Below, in pieces: positions 13,586-32,000 of a stretch of 32,000 nt of DNA. The position numbers were made by a program, and so were the translations under genes. The DNA is taken from the NCBI GenBank assembly GCA_049297455.1, contig JBAQUK010000148.1, forward strand, positions 7,668 through 39,667, in the 5' to 3' direction. Below the pieces are notes generated by a model. That model did no database searches. It saw nothing but the letters and a program-made list of their open reading frames with translations, and was not told the origin of the DNA. Each line of letters opens with the position of its first letter. Position 1 is the stretch's first letter. Source of the DNA: Desulfosalsimonadaceae bacterium. Its GTDB lineage: Bacteria; Desulfobacterota; Desulfobacteria; Desulfobacterales; Desulfosalsimonadaceae.

Positions 13586-14278
13586 ATGACGAACCTTCAG
13601 GAAGCCCCCACCACCTATTTTATAGAAAAGCATTACAAAGACGCGTTTGACAGAATCGGCAAAGACAAACAACAGCGCATCCTTGACGCGGCCATTGCGG
13701 AATTTGCGGCCCTTGGTTTTATCGCCGCCAACATCAACGTCATCGCCAAAAACGCCGGGATCAGCATCGGCTCCATGTATAATTATTTTGAATCCAAGGA
13801 ACGCCTGTTTCTGACCATCGTGGATCACGGATACGCGGTACTCGAAAAAGTGATATCCAGCGTGGACCTGACCAAAGGCGACATTTTTGATAAACTGGAA
13901 ATGATGCTGCGGCTGGCCCAGGATTATTCCCGGCAGTATCCCGAACTCAGCCAGATTTACCTGGACCTGACTTCCGGGGGCCTGGCCCATTTGTCGAAAA
14001 CCGTTTCCAGGCAAATGGAAAGCATTACCGCGGATTTTTATCAAACCATGATGGCTGATGCCAAAAAAGCGGGCATTATGGCATCGGATCTGGATGAACG
14101 GGTCACCGCCTTCTGCCTGGACAACCTGATGGTGATGCTTCAGTTTTCCGCCACATCGGCGTATTATAAGGAGCGGCTGAAAATTTTCGCCGGAGAAGAT
14201 GCCGTAGATGATGAAAAAATCATTCAGGGCATGATGCGATTTATCCGCAGGGCTCTGGCGCCGCAGCCTCAGGCATGA
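13586..14278 (+). CDS. TetR/AcrR family transcriptional regulator
   Basis: N-terminal HTH ILDAAIAEFAALGFIAANINVIAKNAGISIGSMYNYFESKERLFLTIV. 230 aa. Confidence 0.9.
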   Translation: MTNLQEAPTTYFIEKHYKDAFDRIGKDKQQRILDAAIAEFAALGFIAANINVIAKNAGISIGSMYNYFESKERLFLTIVDHGYAVLEKVISSVDLTKGDIFDKLEMMLRLAQDYSRQYPELSQIYLDLTSGGLAHLSKTVSRQMESITADFYQTMMADAKKAGIMASDLDERVTAFCLDNLMVMLQFSATSAYYKERLKIFAGEDAVDDEKIIQGMMRFIRRALAPQPQA

Positions 14279-14303
14279 AATTAATCGGACGGGAAACTTT
14301 ACA

Positions 14304-14396
14304 ATGAAAAACACATCAACAACCAATTTATTATCCGACCCGTCGGCCCTGCAACCGCTGATTCCGGCAAGCCCCGCTTCGGTTCCCGGCTGCTGA
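14304..14396 (+). other. 30-codon ATG ORF ending in TGA, in frame with hgcA (upstream ORF or Sec-containing N-terminal extension)
   Basis: Reads MKNTSTTNLLSDPSALQPLIPASPASVPGC, then TGA at 14394-14396. GGGAAA lies 7 nt upstream of the ATG, which is 25 nt after the tetR stop. It is in the same frame as GTG 14448, with no stop and no start codon in between. Confidence 0.35.
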
Positions 14397-14414
14397 GCGC
14401 AGGCGACCGAAACA

Positions 14415-14430
14415 CGGGAAGGCTTTCCCG
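14415..14430 (+). other. GC-rich hairpin 18 nt downstream of the in-frame TGA (candidate bacterial SECIS apical stem-loop)
   Basis: CGGGAA-GGCT-TTCCCG: 6-bp perfect stem with tetraloop GGCU. The structure is visible in the sequence; the function is inferred only. Confidence 0.3.
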
Positions 14431-14447
14431 GATTAAACCAGCCGTTT

Positions 14448-15485
14448 GTGATCGGCAGTATGCCGTTTGAGGATCAAAAAATTCCCCAGGTAGGCCCCCG
14501 GCTCACCCGCATGGATCGCTTGGGCGCCATCAAAGTCCGCTGGGGCATCGGCCGGATGAATTACAGAATCGATCCGGGTCTTTACGCCTTTGGAAACCCG
14601 GACAACCGGTCGGATGTTTTGGTGACCGCCAATTACAAATTGAGTTTTGACAGCCTGCGCAGCGCCCTGCCCCGGCACAATGCATGGATTCTGGTTCTGG
14701 ATACCGACGCCGTTAATGTCTGGTGCGCGGCGGGAAAAGGCGCTTTCGGCACCGCAGAACTTGTCCGCAGAATCGCATCCAGCCGTCTTCCGGAACTGGT
14801 TTCCCACCGGCGGCTGATTGTCCCGCAACTGGGAGCGTCCGGCATTGCAGCCCATCTGGTAAAAAAACAAACCGGCTTTGAGGTCATTTACGGCCCGATC
14901 CTGTCCATTGATCTGCCGGAATTTATCACGTCCGGATACAAGGCCGCACCCTTCATGCGCACAAAACGGTTTCCGTTTTGGGAACGCGCGGTCCTGATTC
15001 CCATGGAGCTGATTCCGGCCCTCAAATGGGCACTGCTTCTCATCTGCCTCATGGTCATTACGGGCGGATTCGGCGGACCGAAAACTTTCTTTCAAAATAC
15101 AGTGACTAACAGCGTCTTTGCAGCCATGATGCTGACCGGCGGATTGTTCGCAGGAGCTGCGCTGACGCCGGCGATGCTCCCCCTGCTGCCGGGAAAAGCC
15201 TTTGCGTTCAAAGGAATGGCAGCCGGACTGATGACATCCGCCGTTATCGTTCTTTTGTTTCTGATGGGATCATGGCCTTTTCCGGGAATCCTGCCGGCCA
15301 TGGGCGCGGTTCTCCTGTCAACGGGGTTTGCTTCTTTTCTCGGGATGAACTTTACCGGTGCGTCAACCTATACGTCGCTGTCCGGCGTCCGAAAAGAAAT
15401 GAGAACAGCCGTTCCGCTCCAGATACTGGCCGGTATCGCCGGATTGCTGCTATGGGTGGCGTCACTCTTTTCAAAACTGACATAA
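14448..15485 (+). CDS. hgcA: mercury methylation corrinoid protein HgcA
   Basis: Contains the diagnostic cap-helix motif NVWCAAGKG within VLVTANYKLSFDSLR...WILVLDT..VNVWCAAGKGAFGT.ELV.RI, followed by a C-terminal multi-TM domain. Coordinates are the conservative GTG start from the ORF track; a possible extension to ATG 14304 through the TGA is discussed in findings. Confidence 0.9.
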   Translation: MIGSMPFEDQKIPQVGPRLTRMDRLGAIKVRWGIGRMNYRIDPGLYAFGNPDNRSDVLVTANYKLSFDSLRSALPRHNAWILVLDTDAVNVWCAAGKGAFGTAELVRRIASSRLPELVSHRRLIVPQLGASGIAAHLVKKQTGFEVIYGPILSIDLPEFITSGYKAAPFMRTKRFPFWERAVLIPMELIPALKWALLLICLMVITGGFGGPKTFFQNTVTNSVFAAMMLTGGLFAGAALTPAMLPLLPGKAFAFKGMAAGLMTSAVIVLLFLMGSWPFPGILPAMGAVLLSTGFASFLGMNFTGASTYTSLSGVRKEMRTAVPLQILAGIAGLLLWVASLFSKLT

Positions 15486-15497
15486 GGTGAATTCCTG

Positions 15498-15800
15498 GTG
15501 TTAAACAACCCGGTTTATCTGAAAAATGTCGTTACGCTTAAGCTCGATACCGATCGGTGTATCGGCTGCGGATTGTGCACAATTGTTTGCCCGCATACGG
15601 TTTTTGAATTAAAATCCCGCAAAGCCGTCATCATCAGTCGGGATGCCTGTATGGAATGCGGAGCTTGCAAAATGAACTGCCCGACAGGTGCAATTCATGT
15701 GAAATCCGGCGTGGGATGCGCGGCAGCCGTCATCAACACCGCTCTGGGACGCAGCAGCGGGTCCTGCTGCTGCGTCATCGAAGAAGAAAATGAATACTAA
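15498..15800 (+). CDS. hgcB: mercury methylation ferredoxin HgcB
   Basis: GTG start with AAGGTGA 7 nt upstream. Two CxxCxxCxxxCP 4Fe-4S motifs (CIGCGLCTIVCP, CMECGACKMNCP) and a C-terminal vicinal Cys cluster (SGSCCCV). Lies immediately after hgcA. Confidence 0.9.
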   Translation: MLNNPVYLKNVVTLKLDTDRCIGCGLCTIVCPHTVFELKSRKAVIISRDACMECGACKMNCPTGAIHVKSGVGCAAAVINTALGRSSGSCCCVIEEENEY

Positions 15801-17142
15801 AACCCATGATCTGTCACATGCGCTTCGCGGTTTTTACGCTGATGACGCCCGACGCGCCCAAAAAGACCGGCAAGTGCCCTTGAAAATTCTGCACCTGCTG
15901 TCCCAGCAGCCCGGCAAAACCGGCAGCGGGGTGTATCTTCTGGCCATGACGGATCTTGCGGGCAAGGCAGGGTATCAGCAGCGAGCAGTAATCGGCCTTC
16001 CGGGCGACAGCCCCCTGCCCGATGTCCCGCCCCTTGCTGCGGAAGATCTGTTTGCCGTGCGGTTCGACCGGCCGCCGGTCCCTTTCCGCATTCCCGGCAT
16101 GAGCGATATCATGCCCTACCCGTCCACCCGGTTTTCCACATTCACCGATGCCATGCGGGAAGGCTATCTTCAGGTGTTTTGGGACGCCCTGACCGCTGCC
16201 GCAGATGGTTTTGAGCCGGATATCATTCATTCCCATCATTTATGGCTACTTACGGCCCTGGCCAGAGTCCGGTTTCCCGATACGCCCATCTGTGTTTCCA
16301 GCCACGGCACGGAACTGCGGCAACTGGTGAACGCCCCGCAGCTTGCTCCCTTTGTGCTGCCGGGATGCCGGGCCGTGGACCGGGTGTTCGCCCTTCACGA
16401 GGACAACAAACACCAGATTATGAAAGCCTACGGGATTCCTGAAAACCGCATTCAGGTGACCGGTGCCGGATTCCGGTCCGACCTGTTCCGGCCTGCCGAT
16501 TCCTGCGTTCCGGGTTTCGACCGGGAAGAACTGACCATCGTCTATGCGGGAAAAATTTCCGCGCCCAAGGGAGTGCCGTGGCTTATTCAGGCCATGCGGC
16601 GGGTGCGGGCTCCTGAAGGGAAAACCGTCCGGCTGCTGCTGGCAGGGGCCGCCGGTGAAGGCAGCGGCGAAGAAATACGGCGGCAGGCGGCAGACCTTGA
16701 AAACGTGGTGTTTTTGGGCGCGCTAAACCAGGAACAATTGGCCGGCTTCCTGCGGGAAGCCGATGTGTTTGTCCTTCCTTCGTTTTTCGAAGGCCTGCCC
16801 CTGGTAGTGGTGGAATCCCTTGCCTGCGAATGCCGGGTGGTGGTGACGGATCTGCCGGGCCTGGATTCATGGATGCCGGAAAATTTGTGCGCGGACCGTG
16901 TGGTGGAAAAAGTACCGCTTCCCCGGCTCACCGGACCGGATACCCCGGTTTCCGATGACCTGCCCCGGTTTGTGGATAACCTTGCGGTCGCCTTGTCCCG
17001 GCAACTGGAAACGGCTGCTGCTTGCAGGGGAAAGGCCGACATCGCCTGCCGGGTGGCGGGACTGGCGTGGGAAGGGGTGTTTGAGCGGATTCATGCGGCG
17101 TATCTTGAACTGACGGGGGCTTCTCATAAGGTTCGGGATTGA
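15790..17142 (+). CDS. glycosyltransferase family 4 (GT-B fold)
   Basis: Overlaps the hgcB 3' end by 11 nt. C-terminal EX7E-type block LPSFFEGLPLVVVESLACECRVVVTD. The N-terminal domain is the GT4 type. Confidence 0.85.
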   Translation: MNTKTHDLSHALRGFYADDARRAQKDRQVPLKILHLLSQQPGKTGSGVYLLAMTDLAGKAGYQQRAVIGLPGDSPLPDVPPLAAEDLFAVRFDRPPVPFRIPGMSDIMPYPSTRFSTFTDAMREGYLQVFWDALTAAADGFEPDIIHSHHLWLLTALARVRFPDTPICVSSHGTELRQLVNAPQLAPFVLPGCRAVDRVFALHEDNKHQIMKAYGIPENRIQVTGAGFRSDLFRPADSCVPGFDREELTIVYAGKISAPKGVPWLIQAMRRVRAPEGKTVRLLLAGAAGEGSGEEIRRQAADLENVVFLGALNQEQLAGFLREADVFVLPSFFEGLPLVVVESLACECRVVVTDLPGLDSWMPENLCADRVVEKVPLPRLTGPDTPVSDDLPRFVDNLAVALSRQLETAAACRGKADIACRVAGLAWEGVFERIHAAYLELTGASHKVRD

Positions 17143-17166: not shown

Positions 17167-17197
17167 TGATATCATAAAAAAATATAAAATGATATCA
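17167..17197. promoter_or_regulatory. two copies of the palindromic octamer TGATATCA upstream of vapB (probable antitoxin operator)
   Basis: TGATATCA at 17167-17174 and 17190-17197, with centres 23 bp apart. The second copy ends 17 nt before the vapB ATG. Confidence 0.45.
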
Positions 17198-17214
17198 TGC
17201 AAAGGAGATTTAAT

Positions 17215-17475
17215 ATGAAATCCATCCTGATTCGAGGCCTTGAACCCTCACTGGCGGATCAGATCAAAACCCATGCCAAATCCCTCGGCAAAAGCGTCAA
17301 TCAATATATAAAGGACATCATCAAAGAAAAGATCGAGGGCGAAGGCGGTCAAAAACATACAAAGATTTATCATGACCTGGATCATCTGTTCGGACGATGG
17401 AGCGAGGAGGAATATCAGCAAATTCAGGGAAAAATCGACAGCGAAAGAACGATAGATCCGGAGTTATGGGAATGA
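17215..17475 (+). CDS. vapB: type II antitoxin, ribbon-helix-helix (VapB/FitA-like)
   Basis: ORF 17197-17475, trimmed to ATG 17215 with AAGGAG 7 nt upstream. The N-terminus MKSILIRGLEPSLADQIKTHAKSLGKSVNQYIKDII is RHH-like. The stop overlaps the PIN gene start (ATGA). Confidence 0.75.
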   Translation: MKSILIRGLEPSLADQIKTHAKSLGKSVNQYIKDIIKEKIEGEGGQKHTKIYHDLDHLFGRWSEEEYQQIQGKIDSERTIDPELWE

Positions 17476-17858
17476 AACGGCTGCTGATTGACACCAATAT
17501 TTATTCCCACGCTCTCAGAGGCGACAAATCCATTGCAACAATCCTTCAGAAGGCCGATTCCATCGGTATTTCATCCATCAGCATCGGTGAACTGATTTCC
17601 GGATTTAAAGGCGGAAGCCGGGAAGCCCGGAATCGGGAAGAACTCGATATATTTCTGAGCAGCTCCAGGGTCACGGTCTTTCCGGTGGATGAAGAGACAG
17701 CGGTTTTTTATGCCGAAATCCGGCAAAATTTAAAAACCATCGGAAAACCGATTCCCACAAACGACATGTGGATTGCCGCCTGCGCCTTTCAGCACGGCTT
17801 GAGCTTGTTTAGCGCGGACATGCATTTTAAATCCATTTCCGGATTGACAACCGTTTAA
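17472..17858 (+). CDS. vapC: type II toxin, PIN-domain ribonuclease VapC
   Basis: ORF 17397-17858, trimmed to ATG 17472 (MKRLLIDTNIY). PIN acidic residues sit in LIDTN, GELISG, ..NDMWIAA.. and SAD contexts. Confidence 0.85.
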   Translation: MKRLLIDTNIYSHALRGDKSIATILQKADSIGISSISIGELISGFKGGSREARNREELDIFLSSSRVTVFPVDEETAVFYAEIRQNLKTIGKPIPTNDMWIAACAFQHGLSLFSADMHFKSISGLTTV

Positions 17859-19420: not shown

Positions 19421-19542
19421 ATCCATTTCTGATATTTTTTTGAATTACTTCAATTTGTATAAATCGGGAGCCGACGCCGGACCCCCCTTTTTCATCCGGT
19501 AATTAACGGATGAAAATCCAAAAGAGGAGGAGACAAACAAAC

Positions 19543-21096
19543 ATGACGACACCCCAGGACTTACTCGCAAAATTGGAACAAAAAAGCCAGGAGGCCCTTC
19601 AGGGCGGCGGCGCCTCCAGGATTCAAAAACAACATGAATCCGGAAAGTTAAGCGCCCGCGAACGGATCGACAAACTGATGGACCCGGGCACGTTTGTGGA
19701 ACTCGACCGCTTTAAAACCCATCGCTGCACGGATTTCGGCATGGCGGATCAGAAAGTGCTGGGCGACAGCGTGGTGACGGGCTACGGCCTTGTGAACGGG
19801 CGGCAAACATTCGTTTTTTCCCATGATTTCACCATTTTTGGCGGGTCCTTATCCCTCGCCCATGCGGAAAAAGTCTGCAAAGTAATGGAAATGGCGCAAA
19901 AAATGGGCGCGCCCATCGTGGGACTGTGCGATTCCGGCGGCGCCCGGATTCAGGAAGGGGTCATGAGCCTTGCCGGATATGCGGATATTTTTTTAAGAAA
20001 CGTCCTGGCATCCGGCGTGATCCCCCAGATTACGGCCATCATGGGGCCCTGCGCTGGCGGGTCCGTGTATTCACCGGCGCTGACGGACTGGATTTTCATG
20101 GTGGAAGAGACCAGCTCCATGTTCATCACCGGCCCGGAGGTCATTAAAGCAGTGACCCGGGAAGTGGTGACCAAGGAAGATCTGGGCGGCGCCATGGCCC
20201 ATAACGAAATCAGCGGCGTGGCCCATTTTGCATCCCCCAATGACGAAGCCTGTATTTTAAAAATCCGGGAACTCATGAGCTTCCTTCCCCAAAACAACCT
20301 GGAAGACGCTCCGCGCATCCCCTGCACCGACGATCCCGGCCGCCGGGACCTGAATCTTCGGGATATTGTGCCGCCGGACCCCAACAAACCCTATGATATC
20401 CGGGACATCATCCGTTCCAACGTGGATAACGGGTATTTCTTTGAAGCCCATGAACATTTCGCCAAAAATATCGTCGTGGGTTTCGCCCGGTTTGACGGGG
20501 CACCTGTGGGCATCATCGCCAACCAGCCCGCCGTTATGGCCGGATGTTTAGATGCCAACGCCTCCATGAAAGGCGCCCGCTTTGTTCGGTTCTGCGACGC
20601 ATTCAACATCCCCCTCGTCATTTATGAGGATGTTCCCGGATTCCTGCCCGGCGTCCATCAGGAACACGGCGGCATCATCAAGCACGGGGCCAAACTCATC
20701 TATGCATTCTGCGAGGCCACCGTGCCCCGCCTCACCCTCATCACCCGCAAAGCATACGGCGGAGCGTATTGTGTCATGAGTTCCAAGCATATTCGCGGGG
20801 ACATCAACATCGCCTATCCCACGGCGGAAATTGCGGTCATGGGTGCGGATGGGGCCGTGAACATCATTTTCCGGAATGAAATCAAAACCGCCGCCGACGC
20901 AACGGCTGAAAAACAGCGGCTGGTGGATGACTACCGGGAAAAATTCGCCCATCCCTATAAAGCGGCGGAGTTCGGGTATATCGATGATGTGATCGATCCC
21001 GCCGACACCCGGCCTCAGATTATTCAGGCCTTAAAAATGCTCAAGACCAAACGGGATACCAATCCGCCAAAAAAACACGGGAATATCCCGCTTTAA
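19543..21096 (+). CDS. mmdA: acyl-CoA carboxyltransferase, methylmalonyl-CoA decarboxylase alpha subunit type (PccB/MmdA family)
   Basis: ORF 19510-21096, trimmed to ATG 19543 with GAGGAGG upstream. Typical carboxyltransferase blocks: [73 protein letters not shown]. Confidence 0.9.
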
Positions 21097-21112
21097 TTAC
21101 AGGAGATCACAT

Positions 21113-22261
21113 ATGTCTTTCGAACATGTACTGGAACTGATCAAGAGCATCCTGATTACGCAGACGGGGATTCCCAACCTGACGGGCGGGCAAGGGCTCA
21201 TGATCTGCATCGGGCTGCTGTTTCTGTATCTGGCCATTGCCAAGGAATACGAACCGCTCCTTCTGCTGCCCATCGGATTCGGGATTTTTATCGTTAACTT
21301 CCCCCTGGCCCCCCTCATGGGATACACGGACCAGGGCTCCCCGGAACTGCTCCGGGCGTTTTACAAATACGGCGTTGAATGGGAAATCATCCCATGCGTG
21401 ATTTTTCTGGGGCTTGGCGCCATGACGGATTTCGGGCCGCTCATCGCCAACCCGAAAACCCTGCTTATCGGGGCCGGGGCCCAACTGGGGGTTTTTGTCA
21501 CCTATGTGGGCACGCTTTTCTTCGGGTTCACCTTAAAGGAAGCGGCATCCGTGGGCATTATCGGCGGCGCGGACGGACCGACCACCATCTATCTGACGGC
21601 CAAACTGGCTCCCCATCTGCTGGGTGCCAACGCCCTGGCCGCCTATTCCTACATGGCCATGGTGCCCCTGATTCAACCCCCCATCATGCGATGGCTGACT
21701 TCAAAAAAGCAAAGAATGATCCGCATGCGGCAGTTGCGGGAAGTCTCCGCCAGGGAAAAGCTGCTGTTTCCGCTGGTTGCCTGCCTGCTTATTGTCCTTC
21801 TGATCCCTGCGGTGGCCCCGCTGATGGGCATGTTCATGTTCGGCAACCTGATGCGGGAGAGCCTTGTTGTGAAACGTCTCACCGACACGGCCCAAAATTC
21901 GCTTATGAATATCGTTACCATCTTTCTGGGGATATCCGTGGGCGCGACCATGCAGGCGGAAACGTTTCTACATTTGAAACCCCTCCTGATCTTCATGTTC
22001 GGACTCGGGGATTTTGTCATCTGCACAATGGGAGGGATACTCACGGTTCATCTCATGAATTTGTTTTTAAAGGAAAAAATGAACCCCCTCATCGGATCGG
22101 CCGGGGTTTCGGCAGTGCCCATGTCCGCCAGGGTGTCCCATGTCGAAGGGCTCAAGGCAGATCCGGATAACTGGCTGCTCATGCATGCAATGGGCCCCAA
22201 CCTGGCCGGCGTTATCGGTTCCGCCGCCGCAGCCGGCATGTTTATCGCCATGTTTCAATAG
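21113..22261 (+). CDS. mmdB: sodium-ion-translocating decarboxylase beta subunit (OadB/MmdB/GcdB family)
   Basis: AGGAG upstream. Polytopic membrane protein with family blocks [34 protein letters not shown] and [13 protein letters not shown]. Confidence 0.9.
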
Positions 22262-22270
22262 GAGGGCGAA

Positions 22271-23248
22271 ATGAAAAAACAATTGTCATTTTTACACATT
22301 AAAACGTGTTTCATCCTTTGCCTGCTGGCGATGGCCCTGCTCCTTCCGTCCGCATCAATGGCGTTCATGGATGAAGATATTGAAAAACCAAAACCCGAAC
22401 TCACTCCGGGAAAAGACGGCATCGTCACCGCAAAATTCATCCCCAGGGCCAAAAGCACCAGCGTCACGATAGATTTTGCGGTAACCGGCGGCGGGAATCT
22501 TTCGGCAGTGAATGCGTTTGATATAAACAAGGCATTAAGCCCCCAAATCAACAAAAAGGATTTCCGCTCCGACCTATTCAATATTCAGATTGAGGGAGTT
22601 GCTCCCGGAGACGAAGCGGTTTTGACCGTCGCTTCGTCCTTTTTCTCAACATCCACCTCTTACTGGATTTTTAATGAAAAACGCCAGCCTACCTGGATGA
22701 ATTCCCAGGCGGAAAACCTTCCCCTGGCGGAAAAAGTCCGGCAATTTGTGATCCGGGTAAAAGACGGCGGCCAGTTTGATTCGGACAGTGCGGCAAACGG
22801 ACGGATCACGATGATCGGCGGCCCCAGCGACTCCTTCTGGGGGTATGTGCTGGGAACTTTGTTTATCCGGTTCTTCGGGGTGTTTATTGTGCTTGGTGTG
22901 CTGATGATCGGTATGCTGCTCTCCGGTAAAATTTTCCAGAAACTGGAGAAAAAACCGGAAGCGACTCAACCCGATATGCCGATGGACACTGCACCTTCGG
23001 CCCCGACTCCGGCCCCAGTCCCGGTATATGACTGGCCGCCGGCAACCCCGACGGATGCGGTTACGCCTGAAATGGCGGCAGCCATCGGCGCGGCCATGGC
23101 CATGCACCAGGCACCCCGAATAATGCCGGCACCCGCGCCTGCCCATGAAACCGTTCATGAGACGATTCAGGCAGCCCCTTCCTGGGCAATGGACGGACGG
23201 CGGCAGATCATGTCGGACAGAAGCATGGTATTTAACCGAGCTAAATGA
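22271..23248 (+). CDS. OadG-like decarboxylase membrane-anchor subunit fused to an N-terminal exported domain
   Basis: GGAGGG upstream. Signal peptide (MKKQLSFLHIKTCFILCLLAMALLLPSASMA), then an about 160-aa soluble domain. This is followed by one TM (FFGVFIVLGVLMIGMLLSGKIF), a Pro/Ala-rich linker and VTPEMAAAIGAAMAMH, the OadG-family hallmark. Confidence 0.6.
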   Translation: MKKQLSFLHIKTCFILCLLAMALLLPSASMAFMDEDIEKPKPELTPGKDGIVTAKFIPRAKSTSVTIDFAVTGGGNLSAVNAFDINKALSPQINKKDFRSDLFNIQIEGVAPGDEAVLTVASSFFSTSTSYWIFNEKRQPTWMNSQAENLPLAEKVRQFVIRVKDGGQFDSDSAANGRITMIGGPSDSFWGYVLGTLFIRFFGVFIVLGVLMIGMLLSGKIFQKLEKKPEATQPDMPMDTAPSAPTPAPVPVYDWPPATPTDAVTPEMAAAIGAAMAMHQAPRIMPAPAPAHETVHETIQAAPSWAMDGRRQIMSDRSMVFNRAK

Positions 23249-23331
23249 TGACGGTTGACAAATCGACAAACTGAAATAATACAGACTGATATATTTTTCC
23301 GGTTGATCCGGGTTATGGAGACGCATAACTT

Positions 23332-23805
23332 ATGAAATATAATATTTCCGTTAAAGAACAGACTTTTGAGATTGAAGTGGGCGAAATCCGCCAGGGAATG
23401 ACGCGGGTGAACGTGAACGGCACGGACTATGACGTCCGGATCGACGATTATCCGGGTGCAGCCCCGGCCCAAACCATAATGCCAACTCCGGCCATCCCGC
23501 AACGTACACCTGCGGCACCGGCAGCGCCTGCGGCCACGGCCGCCCCCCAGCGGGCAGTCACACCCCCGCCGGCTCCGGAAGCCCTTTCCGGCGGCAATGT
23601 CGTCAAAGCGCCCATGCCCGGCCTGATTCTGGATGTTCAGGTAAGAGCGGGCGATCAGGTGAAGGCCGGCCAGACGGTGATCATCATGGAAGCCATGAAA
23701 ATGGAAAACAGCATCACGGTCAAAATCGACGGCACCGTGAAAGAGATTCATGTGCAGAAAGGCGCCCAGGTAATGACCGGGCATACCCTTCTTGTGGTTT
23801 CTTAA
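23332..23805 (+). CDS. biotin carboxyl carrier subunit of the decarboxylase
   Basis: C-terminal biotinyl domain (VKAPMPG.I.DV.V..GD.V..GQ...IMEAMKMEN.I) preceded by an Ala/Pro-rich linker. Confidence 0.9.
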   Translation: MKYNISVKEQTFEIEVGEIRQGMTRVNVNGTDYDVRIDDYPGAAPAQTIMPTPAIPQRTPAAPAAPAATAAPQRAVTPPPAPEALSGGNVVKAPMPGLILDVQVRAGDQVKAGQTVIIMEAMKMENSITVKIDGTVKEIHVQKGAQVMTGHTLLVVS

Positions 23806-31847: not shown

Positions 31848-32000
31848 ATGGTATTCTTTTTTCCTGTTATTCTCAACGATCTTTTTAAATTTGGCCGGGC
31901 TTATCAATGGCCCAAGCCTTCTGAATGCGACCGGTGTTCCAGTTGCAGATTATGGGGGCACGGTTATGTGACGGCCTGTTTTGACGGATTTTCTGAACCG
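31848..32000 (+). CDS. 5' part of an unidentified protein with an N-terminal Cys cluster (possibly transposase-related), partial
   Basis: Strong GAGGAGGA 8 nt upstream of ATG 31848. Reads MVFFFPVILNDLFKFGRAYQWPKPSECDRCSSCRLWGHGYVTACFDGFSEP and runs off the right edge. The CxxCxxC...HG pattern resembles zinc-ribbon N-termini of some transposases. Not resolved. Confidence 0.4.
   Translation, partial: MVFFFPVILNDLFKFGRAYQWPKPSECDRCSSCRLWGHGYVTACFDGFSEP

Follow-up and report, generated by a model that had tools for sequence, protein, structure and literature searches.

HgcA of a Desulfosalsimonadaceae bacterium is probably a selenoprotein with an N-terminal Cys-Sec tail

The in-frame UGA upstream of the annotated hgcA start

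A stretch of 32,000 nt from contig JBAQUK010000148.1 of a Desulfosalsimonadaceae bacterium (the window) carries hgcA, the gene for the mercury-methylating corrinoid protein HgcA. Judged from sequence, this hgcA is very probably a selenoprotein gene that starts 144 nt earlier than listed, at ATG 14304, uses UGA 14394 as a selenocysteine (Sec) codon and thereby provides HgcA with a Cys-Sec tail. As proposed, the full-length gene occupies positions 14304–15485 (on the forward strand, as are the features from tetR to hgcB described below) and consists of 393 codons plus stop in a single reading frame, with Sec as codon 31. Translation would start at ATG 14304, SelB and Sec-tRNA(Sec) would decode UGA 14394–14396 as selenocysteine, with SelB being recruited by a hairpin inside the coding sequence (14415–14430), and past the UGA translation would run on into the corrinoid-binding domain. 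We infer that SelB-dependent Sec insertion at this codon gives a 393-residue HgcA, the first 35–40 residues of which would be flexible and place Cys30-Sec31 15 residues before the first ordered strand (QPFV...). Starts at ATG 14460 (341 aa) and GTG 14448 would then represent truncations, because they result from reading the UGA as a stop.

The locus is an ordinary, mis-annotated member of a form of HgcA that has been described before, and thus no discovery. Haft and Gwadz reported HgcA to be, in the majority of cases, a selenoprotein with the motif CU (U standing for Sec) in its N-terminal part. All 20 of the HgcA genes that they inspected, including that of D. desulfuricans ND132 and GSU1440, could be extended in this way, with Sec machinery present in all those species, an invariant PCUGP in the 20 cases and protein lengths of 363–400 aa; the text contains no analysis of a selenocysteine insertion sequence (SECIS) for HgcA (bioRxiv 10.1101/2022.07.06.499078). 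A 2026 review lists HgcA (NF040863, motif CU) among the prokaryotic selenoproteins (PMC13188914), and a PNAS article of 2024 that deals with HgcAB refers to the suggestion. A selenol beside the corrinoid protein of Hg methylation had been regarded as a new feature in the initial annotation of the window, but it was already in the literature in 2022, for the HgcA proteins of ND132 and G. sulfurreducens among others. With the published Sec form the window protein shares the family, an extension interrupted by one UGA, the Cys-Sec pair, a length (393 aa) within the reported range, and truncation at the UGA in the database.

Codons 1–30 of the tail (MKNTSTTNLLSDPSALQPLIPASPASVPGC, 14304–14393) begin with the sole canonical start codon 5' of the TGA. 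TGC (14391–14393), the last of them, forms with the proposed recoded codon the TGC-TGA sequence (14391–14396) for the vicinal pair Cys30-Sec31. The 17 sense codons that follow (AQATETREGFPGLNQPF, 14397–14447) include no ATG, GTG or TTG and end in PGLNQPF (14427–14447), which represents the PxLxQPFV motif at the start of the ordered domain. Next come GTG 14448, used as start in the list of open reading frames (ORFs), and ATG 14460, the start in the public annotation; these two (14448–14462) correspond to Val49 and Met53 in full-length numbering and are probably internal codons. ATG 14304, the TGA, GTG 14448 and ATG 14460 all lie in one frame. A moderate Shine-Dalgarno (SD)-like sequence, GGGAAA (14291–14296), precedes ATG 14304 by 7 nt, and ATG 14304 itself comes 25 nt after the stop codon of tetR, which is also a TGA. 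The initial annotation had all of these coordinates, the frame and the spacings right. It had further held that GTG 14448 and ATG 14460 stand out in the window for lacking a good SD site. Both do pair less well with the anti-SD sequence (-3.3 and -2.3 kcal/mol, respectively) than ATG 14304 (-6.2 kcal/mol), but this contrast is soft evidence because several genuine genes of the window are equally weak.

In the public annotation (GCA_049304155.1), HgcA starts at ATG 14460 and has 341 aa, while 14279–14459 are left unannotated. The 192 nt from 14279 to 14470 are identical in three assemblies, namely the NCBI metagenome-assembled genome (MAG) GCA_049304155.1 and two Logan assemblies from different runs, so the TGA is not an assembly error. 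A reassignment of TGA in the genetic code was rejected, since TGA terminates 10 of the 21 called genes in the window and no gene has an internal TGA. As TGA is a normal stop elsewhere in the window, its decoding at 14394 must be site-specific.

The identity of the protein is clear from NF040863, the NCBIfam equivalog for HgcA, against which it scores 416 bits (cutoff 275). This profile matches residues 60–389 of the read-through protein, which leaves the N-terminal extension outside. NVWCAAGKG is present, and N138, V139, W140, C141, A143 and K145 are invariant in 33 aligned sequences. The cap-helix Cys of this motif (14724–14726), which is the cobalt ligand of HgcA according to literature cited in PMC11588087, is Cys141 in the full-length protein and Cys93 when counted from GTG 14448. 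The latter number, which the initial annotation had matched to the ND132 protein and held against an extension, is correct; however, it does not argue against the extension, as the ND132 annotation is itself truncated at the same place according to Haft and Gwadz. A C-terminal transmembrane domain is predicted as well, with the structural model of the homolog P0038 showing long helices over residues 223–388 and the window protein aligning throughout.

When a protein database was searched with the read-through product, with U written as C, many HgcA homologs of 375–396 aa were found whose N-terminal extension aligns with that of the window protein. Their extension carries CC (at times CGC, CAC or CCC) 10 residues before PxLxQPFVxG. 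The window has C-UGA, then 10 residues, then PGLNQPFVIG; the spacing is thus equal to that in the CC homologs, and the UGA aligns with the second Cys. A Cys at the TGA position and conservation of GFPGLNQPF were two marks by which the initial annotation had proposed to recognize a genuine extension: the Cys is there, and the peptide matches the conserved PxLxQPFV motif. Protein homology in frame is present on both sides of the UGA, as PGLNQPFV on the 3' side and as an in-frame start and ...PGC context on the 5' side. Shorter database entries often open with V, L or M right at the motif (VSFPDANQPFV, LSPPRLDQPFV, MSLPSLNQPFV), which is the pattern expected of a gene caller that restarts past a stop. 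The Cys forms (P0038, P0018, P0026 and P0054, with CC, CGC or CCC) have the same tail architecture and spacing to PxLxQPFV as the window protein, with a tail that is disordered in the model. They differ in having Cys in place of Sec and in mostly lacking a downstream hairpin, and they are also devoid of the AQ(V/L)S peptide that Sec forms owe to their hairpin codons (see below).

The same arrangement recurs at the DNA level. Eighty hgcA loci from GTDB genomes, 80 from metagenomes and the contig of P0002, the closest relative (locus L161), were translated in frame upstream of the HgcA match. Among 162 hgcA loci, 94 contain an in-frame TGA, located 14–16 codons ahead of QPFV, and another 29 encode Cys in the corresponding position; the remainder either lack the motif or are cut off. 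In the 92 Sec forms that were scored, the distance from TGA to the Q of QPFV is 15 codons in 73 cases, as in the window, 16 in 18 and 14 in one, and an in-frame start codon is present 12–82 codons upstream in all but one of them (68 ATG, 12 TTG, 11 GTG). In L161, the nearest relative with 78% identity, the TGA, the frame, the flanking peptide and the hairpin stem are all kept, the tail being DPAALQPMIPASPASVPGC-U-APTSETREGFPGLNQRFV compared with DPSALQPLIPASPASVPGC-U-AQATETREGFPGLNQPFV in the window. CU is likewise read in five additional loci from the clade to which the window belongs (L081, L082 and L165–L167; about 60% identity), and overall the in-frame UGA recurs in about 97 loci. A leader ORF that had nothing to do with HgcA would not be expected to retain its frame, its spacing and a position equivalent to Cys in so many lineages.

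Residues around the Sec codon vary more than previously described. The local triplets of the 92 Sec forms are CUP (46), CUG (15), CUA (5; the type of the window) and rarer types including TU, SU, AU and GUC. Sec forms without a preceding Cys (TU, SU, AU, VU), with the reversed order (GUC, TUC) or with GUS were seen in L055 (Desulfacinum infernum DSM 9756), L063, L074, L065 (Desulfacinum hydrothermale), L007, L017, L044 and others. The PCUGP published as invariant thus proves too narrow and is no requirement across the family, and the partner Cys need not stand right beside Sec. A hydrophobic LP[VMI][IL] motif 5' of CU/CC was also considered and was dropped, as it was found in just 22 of 123 loci.

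Two loci differ from their relatives at the Sec codon. In L029 (CAZPQA010000038.1, a Desulfobacteraceae MAG), UGU-UCA (Cys-Ser) is found where close relatives have UGC-UGA, while the hairpin GGCUC-AGUU-GAGCC is retained in its consensus form; this looks like a very recent loss of Sec by change of UGA to UCA, or a sequencing error. L122 (Ga0116187_1003338), which contains a Syntrophorhabdus-type hgcA, differs from L047, L128 and L131 by a single base, TGA to TTA (Sec to Leu), in an otherwise identical stretch of 75 nt. Its TTA is an error or else a natural variation by which Sec is lost.

The predicted structure is informative with respect to the translation start. As a stand-in for the window protein, the CC-form homolog P0038 was modelled with AlphaFold on a 31-sequence alignment. 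The mean predicted local distance difference test score (pLDDT) of the model is 79; residues 1–35, including the CC at 28–29, are below 50, and values climb to 88–94 from about residue 41, in the PxLxQPFV region. The first β-strand runs from the V of QPFV (residues 47–53) and pairs with residues 56–61. In the window, this strand corresponds to VIGSMPF, and both GTG 14448 and ATG 14460 fall inside it. A start at ATG 14460 loses most of strand 1 and one at GTG 14448 loses PGLNQPF, which argues for a true start 5' of the TGA. The model shows the Cys pair, and by extension the predicted Cys-Sec pair of the window protein, attached through a flexible tether that is about 15 residues long.

Alternatively, the TGA may end a leader ORF of 30 codons, with HgcA being made from GTG 14448 or ATG 14460 as publicly annotated. 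The gene caller and the NCBI record both begin at ATG 14460, the family model NF040863, whose match begins only at read-through residue 60, needs no extension, and the fold of the single sequence is unremarkable. Moreover, His-tagged ND132 HgcA produced in E. coli, taken here as the annotated short form, is active in lysate together with HgcB (PMC11588087, in which the start of the construct is not stated). A leader ORF, however, would have no reason to share the frame of hgcA, to terminate 15 ± 1 codons ahead of QPFV in all 92 loci that were scored, or to coincide with Cys in the Cys-form loci. In addition, the conserved and ordered PGLNQPF would go untranslated, and translation would have to begin inside β-strand 1 at the two codons with the weakest anti-SD pairing of the three candidates. 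We consider this alternative very improbable. A regulatory upstream ORF, for which frame and stop would be free and N-terminal homology lacking, was rejected as well: the ORF is always in frame, and its TGA, 14–16 codons ahead of QPFV in every scored Sec form, aligns with Cys in the Cys-form loci.

If the UGA is decoded as Sec, it may at the same time serve as a selenium-dependent gate, with Sec-HgcA being made when selenium is available and a truncated product or none when it is not. Such a dual output is compatible with the selenoprotein reading and would refine it. Recoding of UGA in bacteria is generally less than 100% efficient, there is no start codon from the UGA to the first ordered strand, and ND132 HgcA, again taken as the short form, keeps activity. 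On the other hand, initiation at 14448 or 14460 is not evidenced here, and the anti-SD pairing at both codons is weak; we regard a dual output as rather unlikely. The lack of any possible start between the UGA and the first ordered strand also means that Sec insertion may gate the amount of intact HgcA, and that Hg methylation may depend on selenium in the lineage of the window and in the majority of CU-form methylators, an idea that we put forward tentatively and hold to be possible but not probable.

A SECIS-like hairpin downstream of the UGA

The candidate SECIS element CGGGAA-GGCU-UUCCCG (14415–14430) is a perfect 6-bp hairpin, noted before from sequence alone, and is part of the minimum free energy (MFE) fold. 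Numbered from the U of UGA as +1, its stem comprises +22 to +27 and +32 to +37 and its loop +28 to +31. The constraints for bacterial SECIS elements (bSECIS; legend to Fig. 2 of PMC13188914) are a loop of 3–9 nt with G in the first two loop positions, a stem of 4–16 bp, a spacing of 16–37 nt, and an MFE of -7.5 kcal/mol or lower. The window hairpin falls within all four, with the loop GGCU, a stem of 6 bp, a UGA-loop spacing of 24 nt and -8.8 kcal/mol in context. In this point, too, the initial annotation was borne out, and its proposal as a whole, a UGA read as Sec in a Cys-Sec extension with the hairpin as SECIS, is supported by the alignment, the survey of loci and the bSECIS constraints.

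As a filter, the constraints are passed by 60 of 81 Sec forms, 4 of 27 Cys forms and 81 of the 1220 TGA triplets in the window (6.6%), which amounts to moderate specificity. In-context energies were used for all groups equally; with isolated-hairpin energies without dangling ends, the window hairpin falls outside the filter and must thus be close to the -7.5 kcal/mol threshold. Hairpins of at least 5 bp with a loop start at +20 to +32 are present in 56 of 81 unique Sec forms compared with 5 of 27 Cys forms (Fisher p = 5e-6), although this and the other comparisons of Sec with Cys forms ignore phylogenetic non-independence and indicate strong trends rather than exact probabilities. The MFE of the 57 nt after the codon does not differ significantly between Sec and Cys forms (p = 0.10), and the signal appears only with the positioned hairpin.

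Most Sec-form loci share the consensus hairpin GGCUC-AGKU-GAGCC at +18 to +31, with the loop at +23 to +26. Across 63 distinct sequences aligned without gaps, pairing in the six-pair consensus helix amounts to 82.5%, and 22 cells are changed on both sides, as against 7.0 expected from column shuffles (none of 500 shuffles reaches 22). The register of this helix is clearly better than most slid registers. Some lineages have unrelated stems at about the same site (CUCCU/AGGAG, GAGGUC/GACCUC and GAAACUC/GAGUUUC). The codons for the peptide AQ(V/L)S that follows CU, GCU CAG KUG AGC C (+19 to +31), make up the SECIS stem-loop, and most Cys-form homologs are without the peptide. It looks as if this peptide were imposed by the RNA and not by protein function.

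In the window, the hairpin is shifted. The loop starts at +23 in most hgcA loci, and that of the fdhF SECIS lies at G23/U24; compared with either, the distance from the UGA to the window loop is greater by about 5 nt. The counterpart in L161, CCGGGAA-GGAU-UUCCCGG, has all 12 stem bases unchanged and is one pair longer, and among the 54 bases from the UGA, 6 differ between window and L161, none of them in the stem. More distant members of the clade have only a 4-bp hairpin, AGCC-AGGAY-GGCU, at the consensus position. These comparisons suggest that the lineage of the window and L161 may have formed its SECIS hairpin anew some 5 nt downstream of the consensus position, a notion that is better supported than that of a selenium gate. 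Like bacterial SECIS elements (E. coli fdhF type; consensus model of Zhang and Gladyshev, PMC13188914), the window hairpin is located inside the ORF just 3' of the UGA; it differs from that model in having no bulged U, and its recognition by SelB is putative. Altogether, 14415–14430 is a reasonable candidate for the SECIS of this locus and the least secure link in the proposed chain.

The unusual register leads to a further alternative, namely that the locus is the relic of a Sec site in which Sec decoding was lost or the SECIS decayed, so that the UGA now truncates the gene and leaves at most a short HgcA begun at an internal start. Besides the off-register hairpin, single-base losses of the UGA in relatives (UGA to UCA in L029 and TGA to TTA in L122) fit with such a history. 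A decaying site would not be expected to keep TGA, frame, flanking peptide and 12 stem bases between window and L161 while 22% of the HgcA residues differ, nor to pass the bSECIS filter, and the rest of hgcA as well as hgcB are intact. We judge a relic to be even less probable than the leader ORF.

Apart from the phylogenetic non-independence mentioned above, several points weigh against a Sec-containing HgcA at this locus. The hairpin lies about 5 nt 3' of the consensus (loop at +28 to +31 instead of +23 to +26), in a register that is common to L161 only, and because it overlaps conserved codons, part of its conservation is at the protein level. For the window alone, the 60-nt fold from the UGA has a z score of -0.87, with 34 of 200 shuffles folding as well. 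Searches of Rfam, with the whole window at gathering thresholds and with 14250–14520 at E values up to 10, returned nothing relevant, Rfam seemingly being without a matching bacterial SECIS family. The local motif is PGCUAQ (GCUAQ) and not the published PCUGP. The genes selA, selB, selC (tRNA-Sec) and selD are absent from the 32-kb window. In the literature searched, there was no report of selenium in HgcA protein, and nothing was found on the use of Sec in Desulfosalsimonas. Finally, if the ND132 construct corresponds to the annotated short form, methyl transfer in vitro does not strictly depend on the tail.

Genes around hgcA

The gene upstream of hgcA (13586–14278) encodes a TetR-family regulator, as indicated by the ORF list, TetR-type NCBIfam matches and PF00440 (TetR_N) on the public gene call. 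With a gap of 25 nt and no promoter-like site seen between the two genes, tetR and hgcA are likely to be co-transcribed. For the model strain ND132, a preprint describes an ArsR-like regulator, unlike the TetR-family protein here (bioRxiv 10.1101/2022.10.17.512643).

Downstream of hgcA, hgcB (15498–15800) encodes a ferredoxin with two 4Fe-4S motifs (NF040864, 124.7 bits; cutoff 99). Its C-terminal tail is SCCCVIEEENEY, in which the Cys cluster is not at the extreme C-terminus. At the GVGC position, which is Sec in 6.4% of HgcB proteins (Haft and Gwadz, bioRxiv 10.1101/2022.07.06.499078), the window HgcB is of the Cys form (Cys74). A GT4 glycosyltransferase gene (15790–17142) shares 11 nt with the 3' end of hgcB, and in L161 a GT4 gene (1468–2835) is found in the equivalent position with an overlap of 22 nt. 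This arrangement suggests that hgcA-hgcB-GT4 may be a conserved operon in the clade of the window.

Just 3' of hgcAB-GT4 (17197–17858), a small ORF followed by a PIN-domain ORF resembles a toxin-antitoxin pair of the VapBC type. Genes for a carboxyltransferase, OAD-beta, an OAD-gamma-like protein and a biotin carrier (19510–23805) form a cluster of the Na+-translocating decarboxylase type that is unrelated to the hgcA finding. Additional selenoprotein genes were not found in the window, all other in-frame TGA junctions being ordinary intergenic stops or located in antisense frames. By coordinate mapping, the window runs about 115 nt (about 31885–32000) beyond the end of NCBI contig JBAQNV010000002.1, which carries the locus in GCA_049304155.1, and thus probably comes from a different assembly of the same organism.

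Possible role of the Cys-Sec pair and implications

Provided that the UGA is read as Sec, we see about an even chance that the Cys-Sec pair acts as a swinging ligand arm for soft metals. Such an arm would draw Hg(II) from cellular thiols into an S-Hg-Se chelate and, in concert with the Cys-rich HgcB C-terminus, would pass it to the methyl-cobalamin site near Cys141 or take methylmercury from there. The idea is based on the interaction with heavy metals suggested by Haft and Gwadz and on the behaviour of the mobile Cys pairs of MerA. A redox-active selenenylsulfide that might aid corrinoid reduction and a protective Hg sink are less likely functions.

In mammalian thioredoxin reductase, the GCUG motif places a vicinal Cys-Sec pair that is able to form a selenenylsulfide on a flexible terminal segment. 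Gly-Cys-Sec on a flexible terminal segment is what the window protein is predicted to have as well. The thioredoxin reductase motif, however, is C-terminal with Sec in the penultimate position, depends on a eukaryotic SECIS in the 3' untranslated region and serves a redox relay from a flavin/dithiol centre, whereas that of the window is N-terminal in a corrinoid methyltransferase. We therefore did not assign HgcA, a CdhD-like corrinoid protein, to the group of thioredoxin reductase-type GCUG tails and regard the similarity as a resemblance only.

The mobile Cys pairs of MerA bind Hg(II) and hand it over. A vicinal pair of soft ligands on a flexible segment, with hand-over of Hg(II) known or proposed, is thus a feature that HgcA would share with the Cys pairs of mer systems (the C-terminal CC of MerA, and NmerA) and with the CU proteins MerT-like, SaoL, SaoB and SaoC. 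The latter four are CU-containing selenoproteins, and the CU dipeptide is otherwise rare (bioRxiv 10.1101/2022.07.06.499078). The mer and Sao systems belong to different families than HgcA and work in the opposite direction (detoxification or transport instead of methylation), and no homology is claimed.

Our analysis extends the published description of Sec-form HgcA by a motif that is wider than PCUGP, a consensus SECIS with covariation (GGCUC-AGKU-GAGCC, loop at +23 to +26), a shifted hairpin in the lineage of the window, and the observation that NF040863 does not cover the extension. The public record of this MAG and most metagenomic gene calls, which start with V, L or M at or after QPFV, shorten HgcA by about 50 residues. 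Where catalogues of hgcA, primers and structural models rely on such truncated calls, they miss the Cys-Sec tail. HgcA makes methylmercury, and a selenol on a mobile arm next to methyl-cobalamin would bear on the question of how the active site receives its Hg(II). It would likewise bear on the antagonism between selenium and mercury that has long been noted, an idea that has been in the literature since the 2022 preprint, is taken up in the 2026 review and still has the status of a proposal.

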